Origin: Bacillales bacterium
GTDB taxonomy: Bacteria > Bacillota_I > Bacilli_A > Izemoplasmatales > UBA1188
Assembly (NCBI GenBank): GCA_020633845.1
Contig: JACKCW010000002.1
Coordinates: forward strand, 14,332 to 78,331
Length of the DNA: 64,000 nt
Direction of reading: 5' to 3'
Shown: one piece after another, positions 14,143-17,041 of the stretch
Layout of the letters: every line of letters begins with the position of its first letter
Position numbering within the stretch: the first letter of the stretch is position 1
Notes under the pieces: model-generated
Told to the model about the DNA's origin: nothing
What the model saw: only the letters and a program-made list of their open reading frames with translations
The model's database searches: none
Position numbers and translations under genes: made by a program

Positions 14143-14883
14143 TTAAAGTAAATCGCTTTTGGCTGTAGCGATAGTGTTTAAAATAATCAATATTAAAATA
14201 AGTAATAGTACGTGGCATATACCATAGATGAAGTGACAATAAGATGTATCACTAATGGAATTTGGCAGAATACAAAGCACAATTTTTTGGAGTGATGTTA
14301 CAGTTGATGATCCGGATGAAGCGAAAGAAAGCCAATACAATATGATAGAAACAAATCCAGCAAGATAAGTTTTAAGTAAAATAAGGAGGAGAGAACTAAG
14401 TAAGGTATAAAAAATTCCGGCGATATATAAATTAAAGAAATAACGAAAAAACTCAAATGAAATTTGGGAATAGGGCATCAAAGAATAGACCAGACGGAAT
14501 ACTATGAATAAAAAAAGAAGCTCAATTGTATCAAATACAATTATTGATATGTATTTGCTGATTAAAAAAACAATTTTTGACTTGTTACTTCTTATTATAT
14601 ACTGTGAGTATTTTGAATAGAAACCAGAGAAGAAAGAAATATTAATAAAAGAAATAAAGCACACGTAATAGACTTTAATATAGAAAAATGTGTTCTCAGT
14701 GTACAACTGTTTATAGTATTCTCTATCACTATCAATCGCTTGAAACCCATCAAATATACAACTCGCATATAAAATGTAAACAACTGAGACAATATTTAAT
14801 ATAAGAATAACAATAAAGTTCTTTTTGGTGATTAGGTAGTATAAGTGAACCTTAAATAAATTAAGATATTTCACGCATTTCAC
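14143..14883 (-). CDS. Polytopic membrane protein, probable ABC-2-type permease partner of the upstream ATPase
   Basis: About six hydrophobic segments. It overlaps the stop of the ATPase gene by 23 nt. No recognisable motif. Confidence 0.5.
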   Translation of the reverse strand: MKCVKYLNLFKVHLYYLITKKNFIVILILNIVSVVYILYASCIFDGFQAIDSDREYYKQLYTENTFFYIKVYYVCFISFINISFFSGFYSKYSQYIIRSNKSKIVFLISKYISIIVFDTIELLFLFIVFRLVYSLMPYSQISFEFFRYFFNLYIAGIFYTLLSSLLLILLKTYLAGFVSIILYWLSFASSGSSTVTSLQKIVLCILPNSISDTSYCHFIYGICHVLLLILILIILNTIATAKSDLL

Positions 14884-15457
14884 CCGTCTTCAACTCTATT
14901 ATTTTATATCCATATAAGGCCGGCTCGTCCCTTAAGTGTGAGACAACTAATATTAGGCGCTTTTCTTTATCTAAGACTTTCTTGAGATATGCTTTACTTG
15001 CTTGATCAAGACCAGAAAAAGGCTCGTCCATAATTAATATTTCTGATGGCGTAAGTAAGGCTTGTATAATATTCACTTTCTGTTTTTGCCCTTTTGAAAG
15101 TGAACCAAGCCAGGCATCCTTCAGTTTTTCCATACTGAAATTTTTTAGGTATGCCATTATTTCTTGGTCTATTTTGTCGTTCTTTTCTGTTAATGTGGCA
15201 AATGTTTTTATAAATGATATCACGTGCATATAAGGAGGAAAAACAGCTTCCTCCGGTTGATAACTTATTCTTCCATTCACTTCAATAGTGCCAGTATAAC
15301 TCACCTGCTTTAATATTGCCTTAAAGAGAGACGTTTTTCCGACGCCGTTTTCACCTATAATATAATATTTATTACTCCCCAAAAAAGTATAGTTAATATC
15401 CTTCAGTATTTCTTTCTTTCCATATTTTTTGCTAAGATGAGTAATAGTTATATTCAT
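14861..15457 (-). CDS. Short ABC transporter ATP-binding protein
   Basis: Walker A GENGVGKTS, signature LSKGQKQKV and Walker B ILIMDEPFSGLD. I prefer the start MNITITHLSKKYG (15457) to the ORF-track upstream start. Confidence 0.8.
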   Translation of the reverse strand: MNITITHLSKKYGKKEILKDINYTFLGSNKYYIIGENGVGKTSLFKAILKQVSYTGTIEVNGRISYQPEEAVFPPYMHVISFIKTFATLTEKNDKIDQEIMAYLKNFSMEKLKDAWLGSLSKGQKQKVNIIQALLTPSEILIMDEPFSGLDQASKAYLKKVLDKEKRLILVVSHLRDEPALYGYKIIELKTGEMREIS

Positions 15458-16373
15458 ACTTAACCAATCCATCCGCCGACACAAATAATCCCTTTGACAT
15501 AAATCTGAAATCATCTATTGTAAATGTTTTTATTTCTCCATTTAAACTATACTCAATATAAATCGGTAATTTATCTATATATTTCACTTCCGAAAAATAT
15601 AAAAGAGGGATAAATAATGATCCTGATTTACTGGGTTCAATTATTAATGAAATTCGTTCATCATTTATCGATATGGCTTTATATGAATAGTTATCATATA
15701 TTTCGGTTAACTTTGTTTTTTGATCAATACATCTTTCTAGATAATTATTGTAATCAAATTCATAAAGAACATTTTTTGTACTTATTCTTTGAAGCACTAT
15801 ATCATTTTCTGTGTTATTTAATAATGCAAGATTTATTCCAACAATCGTTTCCATTTCATCTATCGTGTTTGTTACTGCCGATAATTTTAATACGGAAAAA
15901 TCATTATTATCACTAATATTAGAATTAAAAAGAATATTGGCATTTCCAATCAAGAAATTTTCTATTACGCCGTTTTTATATGTTATTTTGATTTTTGCAT
16001 CCTTAATATATACGGGGTCAGAAAAATCTTCGTAAGATTTAAATGAAAGGATAAAAATAAACTCATAGTACTTCTGATTTTTATATGTTAATTTGTCTCC
16101 TTCCTTTAGATCTTCTAAATAGGATATAAATCCGTTGTCGTTATTAATTATCGAAATGCTTTCAATTTGTTTTTTGTTAGTTAAAAAAGAATTATTTTTA
16201 CTGAAATAAAGCGGAATAGATAGAGTTTCTGTATCAGAAAGAACGCAATTATATTCTCTTTTCAATGATATAATCTCAACCTGATCGTATTTTTTATAAA
16301 TCAGAATAGAAAATGAAGCAATAGTGGAAAACAGAATTAACGCAACACAAAGCAAAAGTATTTTTTTCTTCAT
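15432..16373 (-). CDS. N-terminally membrane-anchored extracytoplasmic protein, uncharacterised
   Basis: The MKKKILLLCVALILFSTIASFSILIY anchor is followed by an Asn/Ile/Tyr-rich sequence that looks beta-rich. It overlaps the upstream gene by 4 nt. Confidence 0.55.
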   Translation of the reverse strand: MKKKILLLCVALILFSTIASFSILIYKKYDQVEIISLKREYNCVLSDTETLSIPLYFSKNNSFLTNKKQIESISIINNDNGFISYLEDLKEGDKLTYKNQKYYEFIFILSFKSYEDFSDPVYIKDAKIKITYKNGVIENFLIGNANILFNSNISDNNDFSVLKLSAVTNTIDEMETIVGINLALLNNTENDIVLQRISTKNVLYEFDYNNYLERCIDQKTKLTEIYDNYSYKAISINDERISLIIEPSKSGSLFIPLLYFSEVKYIDKLPIYIEYSLNGEIKTFTIDDFRFMSKGLFVSADGLVKYEYNYYSS

Positions 16374-17041
16374 TGTTCCGCCTCACTATCTATTACACTG
16401 TTTTGAGTTATTTCAATAGAGTAATATTCCGTAGTAATAATAACGTACTCGAAAGCACCCCTCTTTGATACTGCCCAAAAAAAGTATTTTTTTGCAACCC
16501 CTTGGTAAAAATAACCCTCACCCATAACTTTAATATATAACGTTGAATTAGGCGCGATTGTCACTTTAACCTGATCGGTTTCAGTCACTTTCGATTTTGT
16601 TGTTTCTTCATATTCGTATTCAAGTTCTCCGTCCAGCCCATACTTAAACTTATTCTTAGTTGTCTGAGAACCACTGACTTTAAGACTGCCGGAAGCCGTT
16701 TTTTGAACTGTTTTTTCCTCTGATTCTTCGTACTTAAACGTATGAATAATCGACTCTGTACCATCATTTTTCACATAATATATTGTGTCGGCAACATATT
16801 TAAAAGGTTCTTTTTTACAGGAATAATATGTATACCAACCAAACATTTTTCTTTCTCTTGGAAGTTTTAATTCATAGGCTTCTGTTTGATGGTCTGGCCA
16901 TTCATCCATCATGACCACATCTTCGTTTTCAAATTCGATAGACTGAAAATAGCGATAATTTTCCGCTTTAACTTCTTTCATACCTGAAGATAAACATAAA
17001 AGAAAAACACAAAAAAATGCCGTAAAAAGTACTTTTTTCAT
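16370..17041 (-). CDS. Small secreted beta-rich protein, possibly aerolysin/ETX-MTX2-like
   Basis: Signal peptide MKKVLFTAFFCVFLLCLSSGMKEVKA, with AGAGGTGGA as the SD. It contains an alternating hydrophobic/polar hairpin flanked by Ser/Thr tracts, followed by VTIAPNSTLYIKV. Confidence 0.6.
   Translation of the reverse strand: MKKVLFTAFFCVFLLCLSSGMKEVKAENYRYFQSIEFENEDVVMMDEWPDHQTEAYELKLPRERKMFGWYTYYSCKKEPFKYVADTIYYVKNDGTESIIHTFKYEESEEKTVQKTASGSLKVSGSQTTKNKFKYGLDGELEYEYEETTKSKVTETDQVKVTIAPNSTLYIKVMGEGYFYQGVAKKYFFWAVSKRGAFEYVIITTEYYSIEITQNSVIDSEAEQ

Follow-up and report, generated by a model that had tools for sequence, protein, structure and literature searches.

A conserved four-gene cassette in uncultured Bacilli encoding a putative aerolysin-type secreted protein, a membrane-anchored partner and a presumed ABC transporter

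Gene organization of the cassette

The DNA analyzed here is a 64,000-nucleotide segment (the window) of a contig from a Bacillales bacterium (GenBank assembly GCA_020633845.1, contig JACKCW010000002.1, positions 14,332 to 78,331), in which four minus-strand genes, called A, B, C and D in their order of translation, lie between mnmA and pyk. A preliminary description of this stretch had proposed that the four genes are tightly coupled, with overlaps of 4, 26 and 23 nucleotides (nt), and both the coordinates and the junction sequences bear this out. The features of the locus, with lengths of the encoded proteins in amino acids (aa), are as follows.

Gene A, 16370-17041, minus strand: open reading frame (ORF) of 223 aa, secreted, mature form ~197 aa, putative aerolysin-type pore-forming fold
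Gene B, 15432-16373, minus strand: ORF of 313 aa, type-II anchored extracytoplasmic protein with two predicted beta-sandwich domains, unnamed family
Gene C, 14861-15457, minus strand: 198 aa, minimal ATP-binding cassette (ABC) ATPase consisting of the nucleotide-binding domain only
Gene D, 14143-14883, minus strand: 246 aa, GTG start, polytopic, read as six transmembrane (TM) segments with the N-terminus inside, presumed permease partner of C
Signal peptide of A, 16964-17041, minus strand: residues 1-26, cut after V-K-A and before E27
Amphipathic beta-hairpin of A, 16607-16708, minus strand: residues 112-145, candidate membrane-insertion hairpin
Intergenic region between mnmA and A, 17042-17090, minus strand: 49 nt, with the ribosome-binding site (RBS) GAGGTG at 17047-17052 and GTATTAT at 17060-17066

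A starts 49 nt after the end of mnmA and overlaps B by 4 nt in the junction caATGA. The 26-nt overlap between B and C is counted from the ATG at 15457, which opens a 198-aa product (MNITI) and has an equivalent in all of the homologues; a 217-aa version of C, extended to 15514, was rejected because the extension is not conserved among them. C and D overlap by 23 nt, the GTG of D at 14883 aligning in register with the ATG starts of D homologues, and 81 nt then separate the end of D from the start of pyk. All four ORFs are real genes, since full-length homologues of each occur in dozens of independent assemblies.

Distribution, synteny and inheritance

A word-indexed search of 5.8 billion proteins returned 12 close homologues of A (29 by profile) and seven of B, and all of the close homologues come from metagenome-assembled genomes (MAGs) named Bacillales, Bacilli or Firmicutes bacterium. 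With a B profile, an exhaustive HMMER search reached 414 clusters of 50% identity, each counted by one representative, at E ≤ 1e-3, of which 299 remained at E ≤ 1e-10; nearly all of the B family matches listed are full-length (~300-326 aa). We examined 36 loci, drawn from the contexts of close and distant A and B homologues and from a metagenome scan with a 12-sequence B subgroup; because every locus was retrieved through A or B, genomes without the cassette could not be counted. The gene order is A-B-C-D in all 36, with overlapping ends wherever the contig extends far enough, and none of the four genes is missing where the sequence reaches far enough. Each locus encodes an A-like protein of 208-227 aa, B, an ABC ATPase of 200-236 aa and a membrane protein of 231-270 aa, and D comes after C in every case, its start overlapping the stop of C. 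The distant A-like proteins, 26% identical to A, are true homologues of it given an hhalign probability of 99.9% (E = 1e-32). Co-occurrence of the four families in other genomes, on which the preliminary view of a single cassette depended, is confirmed by this constant order.

The cassette is found in three flank contexts, namely mnmA-ABCD-pyk (the window clade), mnmA-patatin-ABCD-glmS and CDF-pepP-ABCD. All of the window-clade contigs examined, which include rumen MAGs as well as UBA1188, are arranged as NfeD-Band7-HTH-(nadD-nadE)-mnmA-A-B-C-D-(pyk-DAGK), and in each of the 11 close loci, with mnmA identities of 62-75%, the cassette stands directly after mnmA. A much deeper clade, in which mnmA is ~55% identical to that of the window, preserves the linkage, a patatin gene separating mnmA from A. 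The strict order and the overlaps across three unrelated flank contexts support the view that the genes form one functional unit. Within the window clade, identities range from 34 to 88% for the cassette proteins and from 62 to 97% for mnmA, the cassette evolving about twice as fast as its flanks, and cassette divergence follows mnmA divergence (Mantel r = 0.85, permutation p = 6e-4). This co-divergence does not support a recent acquisition, and A-B-C-D is one ancient, vertically inherited, fast-evolving module in a broad group of uncultured anaerobic Bacilli.

The preliminary description had instead suggested that the cassette, which interrupts a housekeeping stretch between pyk and mnmA and looked by eye richer in AT than its neighbors, might be an accessory or acquired element. 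A horizontally acquired accessory island would fit the placement of A, B and D in no named family, and it would fit the base composition of two of the genes: the GC contents of B (0.257) and D (0.281) are the two lowest among the 47 window ORFs of at least 200 aa, for which the mean is 0.36 with a standard deviation (sd) of 0.035. A (0.339) and C (0.337) are ordinary for the window. Moreover, GC at third codon positions (GC3) is normal for A, C and D, each less than 1 sd from the window mean of 0.316 +/- 0.039, and only B is low (0.22). The deficit of D lies wholly at codon positions 1-2 and thus reflects the amino-acid composition of a protein rich in N, K, I, Y and F, while that of B lies partly at these positions and partly in its low GC3. 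The claim of AT-richness consequently stands for B and for D (in the latter at codon positions 1-2 only) and falls for A and C. An acquired island is also at odds with the identical position in the 11 close loci, the mnmA linkage kept in the second deep clade and the co-divergence with mnmA. In addition, the window ORFs and an Rfam scan of the window, which gave no match, revealed no repeats at the flanks and no integrase or tRNA genes; tblastn searches found neither A nor B in a plasmid collection, nor A in a phage collection; and the 64-kb window contains no cassette paralogues. Taken together, these observations make such an origin very improbable.

In the clade with the mnmA-patatin context (L014, L021-L032 and L035), a cytoplasmic patatin-like phospholipase is encoded directly upstream of A, and glmS lies directly downstream of D, with glmM and glmU after glmS in L014. 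A functional link between the phospholipase and a membrane-active module is possible. A 505-aa 'Patatin' call (L035:1730-3247) was considered as a patatin-A fusion and rejected; its frame continues through an intergenic hairpin into A, which still has a Met and a signal peptide of its own. The read-through is probably due to a lost stop codon or an assembly error.

Neither a consensus promoter nor a terminator was detected in the 49-nt gap between mnmA and A, and no stable RNA fold is predicted there (z = -0.25), the promoter scan performing no better than shuffles (38 found versus 37.3 expected). Co-transcription with mnmA is therefore possible, there being no terminator and no stable structure between the two genes. 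On the other hand, the alignment of the 11 close loci shows that AGTAT..ATT and the strong RBS GAGGTG of A are conserved, and GTATTAT(T) lies 7-10 nt upstream of this RBS in most of them (L004-L013 equivalents); judging by sequence, GTATTAT could be a -10 box that gives the cassette its own promoter. In the patatin clade, A is preceded by a conserved stem-loop of -18 to -22 kcal/mol (z of -2.8 to -4.9).

Stem-loop upstream of the A start: L014:985-1022, L021, L023:4249-4290, L024-L026, L029, L031

The 3' arm of the stem-loop is the AGAGGAGG ribosome-binding site of A, directly followed by a U-run and then by the ATG, and in L031 the structure is retained with a different sequence. It looks like a terminator-like element or a translational gate overlapping the RBS, and it has no equivalent in the window clade. 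A TATTAT or TATTTA similar to the window-clade motif sits in the hairpin loop. At the other end of the cassette, D is followed by no terminator, and an extended -10-like element, TGCTATAAT, lies at 14088-14096 on the minus strand, 27 nt upstream of the pyk start. We suggest that pyk probably has its own promoter, with read-through from the cassette being possible.

Properties of the encoded proteins

The sole hydrophobic segment of A in the alignment-averaged hydropathy profile is N-terminal (core residues 4-22). Residue A26 is invariant and E27 nearly invariant among 12 homologues, which places the cleavage site at VKA/E and identifies the segment as a Sec signal peptide. B has a single N-terminal TM segment (residues 5-23), which is long and has no AXA site and is thus an anchor rather than a cleaved signal; because B is anchored and extracytoplasmic, it lies on the same side of the membrane as A. 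The averaged hydropathy and the lysine-plus-arginine (K+R) bias back the signal peptide and the single TM segment that had been assigned to A and B, respectively.

Several searches relate A to aerolysin-type proteins. A alone matches Pfam Aerolysin over residues 76-158 (E = 7e-4, 19.3 bits), and one of 25 A members matches ETX_MTX2 (E = 6.7e-3), no such match being obtained with the others. Two A profiles, one of 12 sequences and one of 25 sequences spanning all clades, each gave one sub-threshold match when compared with the whole PDB, in both cases to Cry23Aa1 (4rhz) over the same region (E = 1.3e-3 and 6.6e-3). These weak sequence matches to solved or curated toxin families all fall in one superfamily, which supports a relationship. 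The AlphaFold2 model of A, with a mean predicted local distance difference test (pLDDT) score of 63, contains five strands, each 15-24 residues long, and is of low confidence at 106-153; long strands together with a low-confidence extended hairpin are as expected for an aerolysin fold and lend the assignment model-based support. Foldseek comparison of this model with the PDB gave a top 50 consisting nearly entirely of aerolysin-family structures, including aerolysin pores, Cry23Aa1, lysenin, parasporin-2, Dln1, CPE, epsilon toxin, Cry51 and Sip, at probabilities of up to 1.0 and TM-scores of only 0.1-0.25.

Residues 112-145 of A have the highest beta-periodic hydrophobic moment of the protein. 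One face of the first strand is formed by V116, G118, L120, V122, G124 and Y126, and, after a turn at 128-131, the matching face of the second strand is formed by F132, F134, L136, x138, L140, Y142 and Y144. The opposite face carries K, S and E, and a Ser/Thr-rich tract follows at 147-155, so that A possesses the amphipathic alternating hairpin adjoining a Ser/Thr-rich stretch that marks aerolysin-type proteins. The hairpin falls where the pLDDT is low and where the Pfam Aerolysin and Cry23Aa1 matches lie, and its alternation is kept in A homologues at 22-32% identity. On the basis of these weak but consistent lines of evidence, we consider it rather likely that A has an aerolysin-type fold. 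The earlier label of a secreted effector-like protein thereby gains substance, in that the sole structural and profile relatives of A are aerolysin-family pore-forming toxins, all of them matched weakly.

The C-terminal regions of A proteins differ in length. The window protein ends in a short acidic SEAEQ, and several rumen-clade proteins (P0007, P0009, P0020 and P0023; L005:6649-6942 and L010-L012) carry C-terminal tails of 25-90 aa made up nearly entirely of D, E, Y and N. Removable C-terminal pro-peptides are common in aerolysin-family toxins. A conserved T-T-E-Y-Y-S/E-I is also found at the C-terminus of A.

The AlphaFold2 model of B (pLDDT 68.7) has a helix at residues 2-28 followed by an all-beta region that is predicted to form two beta-sandwich domains, for which Foldseek returned generic tandem Ig-like proteins only. 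As the preliminary description had stated, B has no recognizable motif: Pfam, NCBIfam and PADLOC gave no match, and a B profile retrieved only noise from the PDB sequences. The idea that B is a duplicated A was rejected, hhalign finding no homology beyond the N-terminal hydrophobic segment. Members of the B family have a conserved aromatic-alternating strand at the C-terminus, Y306-x-Y308-x-Y310, preceded by I-D-D-F-x-F. Pairwise identities co-vary more strongly for A with B (rho 0.74) and for C with D (0.64) than for A or B with C or D (0.18-0.43; 10 taxa), a pattern that fits two interacting pairs, and the conserved C-termini of A and B, together with the rho of 0.74, may hint at strand-exchange contacts between these two proteins.

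C matches Pfam ABC_tran with E = 5.6e-22 and is a nucleotide-binding domain in which Walker A, signature, Walker B, D-loop and H-loop can all be recognized. All 23 sequences share Walker B (DE), D-loop and H-loop, and 22 of them an intact Walker A, in which the remaining one has alanine for the first glycine. The signature is a conserved non-canonical LS[KN]G in place of LSGGQ. At the Q-loop position the family consensus is I-G/S-Y-x-P-E; the glutamine of the window sequence, 'ISYQPEE', is not conserved among 22 homologues. C resembles many ABC ATPases, PmtC and LptB among them, and is no closer to LptB than to dozens of other families; the Y-x-P-E motif is one that we take to be typical of COG1131-type ATPases, which pair with ABC-2 permeases. 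PADLOC returned only generic P-loop matches for C and none for A or D.

The hydropathy profile of D, averaged over 20 homologues, has five peaks, and we read the hydrophobic stretch after the fourth as a TM4-TM5 hairpin; the K+R bias assigns the N-terminus and loop 2 to the inside. D is therefore read as a six-TM protein with its N-terminus in the cytoplasm, TM1 followed by an extracytoplasmic loop, and an ABC-2-like topology, the likeness being one of topology only. When a 20-sequence D profile was compared with the PDB, the sole match was the ABC-2 permease PmtD at a non-significant E of 4.3. 'ABC-2-like' is therefore a statement about topology and context, and the earlier assignment holds for the six-TM, N-in arrangement and not for membership of an ABC-2 family. 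Profile searches place A, B and D in no described family, in agreement with the earlier failure to match the cassette to a described system, and on this sequence evidence the three proteins define three unnamed families.

Possible functions of the cassette

We favor, at a probability of about 45%, the interpretation that A is a Sec-secreted aerolysin-fold pore-former for which B and CD provide a dedicated handling or self-protection complex. A would be exported by Sec and lose its signal peptide after VKA, leaving a mature protein of ~197 aa that would amount to a minimal aerolysin-type beta-pore-forming module, and oligomerization would allow the hairpin at 112-145 to insert into a membrane. 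B, made in a fixed ratio with A through the ATGA coupling, would remain anchored in the producer membrane, where its tandem beta-sandwich ectodomain might bind or hold A. C2D2 would be an ABC-2-type (type V-like) transporter, perhaps in complex with B, and would spend ATP either on keeping A out of the producer bilayer or on driving the B-dependent release or maturation of A. The rate of evolution, about twice that of the flanks, is of a kind often found in exposed interaction proteins. The toxin and export/immunity logic put forward in the preliminary description thus stays the leading reading at this tentative level, the matches of A being weak throughout.

Comparison with known systems brings out likenesses to several of them. 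A resembles the aerolysin/ETX-MTX2 superfamily in being Sec-secreted, in its very long, twisted predicted strands and in its central amphipathic hairpin followed by a Ser/Thr-rich stretch. It differs in falling below all family thresholds, in a mature length of only ~197 aa, in the absence of a receptor-binding domain and, for the window protein, of an obvious pro-peptide, and in being encoded by a chromosomal, core-like, vertically inherited gene; moreover, no described member is tied to an anchored partner and an ABC transporter. Cry23Aa1, the best and sole PDB sequence match of the A profiles, is a protein of aerolysin type encoded together with a beta-sandwich partner. The Cry23Aa1/Cry37Aa1 pair of Bacillus thuringiensis (4rhz), however, consists of plasmid or crystal toxins of a spore-former and has no ABC transporter, and B, with 313 aa and a membrane anchor, has no detectable similarity to Cry37.

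Other precedents concern self-protection. LanI and LanFEG (as in NisI/NisFEG) are reported to be a tethered binding protein and an ABC-2-type transporter that shield the producer from its own membrane-active product (PMC4094520, PMC4828448, PMC4234265). The likeness to this system is one of logic only, that is, a tethered extracytoplasmic protein plus an ABC transporter. Neither B nor D shows homology to it; A, as the product, is a beta-protein of 20 kDa exported by Sec and not a modified peptide, B is held by a TM anchor and has no lipobox, and there is one permease gene instead of two, with no modification or regulatory genes. Nor is there a bacteriocin or lantibiotic cluster context, the flanks being housekeeping genes (mnmA, pyk, glmS and pepP) without modification enzymes. 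The lactococcin-972 ABC system is likewise similar in logic, with no homology to support membership. PmtABCD of Staphylococcus aureus (6xjh) is an ABC-2-type exporter that clears membrane-damaging products, the phenol-soluble modulins, from the producer membrane; PmtD is the one protein retrieved by the D profile, non-significantly, and PmtC is among the NCBIfam matches of C. PmtABCD nevertheless comprises two ATPases and two permeases without A-like or B-like partners, and the modulins, having no signal peptide, depend on Pmt for their export, whereas a Sec signal is present in A.

A number of points weigh against the pore-former interpretation. All links between A and aerolysins are sub-threshold (PDB E values of ~1e-3, TM-scores of 0.1-0.25, pLDDT 63), and the 19.3 bits scored by A do not reach the Pfam Aerolysin gathering cut-off of 24.3. 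Six distant A members weakly match the unrelated CIA30 beta-sandwich family, at up to 5.9e-5 and below its cut-off. A lacks a receptor-binding domain, and no ABC-2 permease is significantly similar to D, for which Pfam and NCBIfam scans of 15 members gave no match to any family. Bacterial aerolysin-family toxins, furthermore, are not known to need dedicated immunity, their producers being protected by receptor specificity and extracellular activation (PMC12691639). Finally, toxin loci are usually patchy and mobile, so that a core-like, syntenic cassette that is single-copy in the window is atypical of them, and a physiological role fits such a locus better.

One way to account for these points is that the aerolysin likeness is spurious, A being an extracytoplasmic beta-sandwich and the cassette an ABC exporter with two accessory ectoproteins. 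Every match lies below curated thresholds, Pfam scans of the 25 A members scatter over unrelated families (CIA30, Scabin-like and others) at similar E-values, the model with its TM-scores of at most 0.25 derives from a shallow 12-sequence alignment, and alternating strands rich in Ser, Thr, Lys and Glu are prone to compositional matches. This account is nonetheless doubtful, because the single-sequence hidden Markov model search, the two PDB profile searches and the 3Di search converge on one superfamily, predicted strands as long as 22-24 residues are at odds with a compact sandwich, and the hairpin pattern is kept across highly divergent A members. An envelope or lipid-handling machine, in which C2D2 would extract or flip a lipidic or glycolipid substrate, or transmit force, with hand-over to B and then to A, would suit the core-like, vertical, single-copy behavior of the cassette as a housekeeping envelope function. 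Its architecture would parallel NosDFY, LolCDE or LptB2FG-LptC-LptA, in the last of which anchored LptC, secreted LptA and the ATPase LptB are encoded in one operon; the operon parts list, with a secreted and an anchored beta-protein, a small ABC ATPase and a six-TM permease, is that of lptC-lptA-lptB(FG), LptB is among the ATPases that C resembles, and one clade has the patatin-like phospholipase upstream and glmS-glmM-glmU downstream. Even so, we regard this function as unlikely: no OstA beta-jellyroll, LolA-like or other Lpt-type or lipid-carrier fold is found among the 50 best Foldseek matches of A or of B, C shows no preference for LptB, and a hairpin with charged lumen-type residues is the signature of a pore-former and not of a lipid groove. 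The hosts, moreover, are presumably monoderm Bacilli, judging by their database names, without lipopolysaccharide or an outer membrane, and would therefore have no second membrane to bridge.

The physiological alternatives that keep the aerolysin fold are also of low probability. A might be a surface component of the producer itself, such as a ring, a coat or a regulated endogenous pore, with B as its anchor and CD as an assembly or quality-control motor. The fixed chromosomal position retained across deep divergence (mnmA ~55% identity), the strong conserved RBS of A, the fixed stoichiometry suggested by the translational coupling of A and B and the lack of a receptor-binding domain for a foreign target are all compatible with this role, and non-toxin aerolysin-fold proteins such as LIN-24 are known from eukaryotes. 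No bacterial precedent is known, however; an uncontrolled beta-barrel pore in the energized membrane of the producer would be lethal, and A and B diverge rapidly (34-86% identity, compared with 62-97% between mnmA sequences), which a structural core protein would not usually do, so that a self-surface role is, in our judgment, improbable. Alternatively, a monoderm bacterial lineage may have domesticated the aerolysin fold within a core, vertically inherited envelope machine of four components that controls insertion of the pore-former and is physiological rather than a classical toxin. Under this proposal, which we put forward as a somewhat speculative one and consider unlikely, the ABC-2 transporter and the anchored Ig-like adaptor would set the time and place of insertion, giving a regulated endogenous or contact-dependent pore.

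Literature searches for aerolysin combined with an ABC operon and for UBA1188 found no description of the A-B-C-D module. The kinds of component are known (a beta-pore-forming fold, and an ABC exporter with immunity-like logic), and it is their combination, core-genome behavior and breadth that are new. If A is truly a pore-former, as in the interpretation favored above, it would be the first aerolysin-fold protein genetically tied to a dedicated ABC transporter and an anchored partner. Given that bacterial aerolysins are not known to need producer immunity, this would imply either a bacteriocin-like beta-pore-forming toxin directed against neighbors or a non-toxin use of the fold. With its constant order and its mnmA linkage in two of the three contexts, the module is in addition a clean, synapomorphy-like marker for a large group of Bacilli from rumen, digester and sediment, all of them uncultured.

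Elsewhere in the window, three tandem lipoprotein genes of 523, 190 and 208 aa (44737-47788, minus strand) share a near-identical N-terminal domain of ~170 aa (DYYAVGQFNGWGTAVGDETYKMTAIAINDERVASIKAELKGATA...). The two short copies, of 190 and 208 aa, are almost identical and have the same C-terminal end, and the arrangement, which adjoins a sugar or nucleoside ABC importer, reflects a recent tandem duplication.

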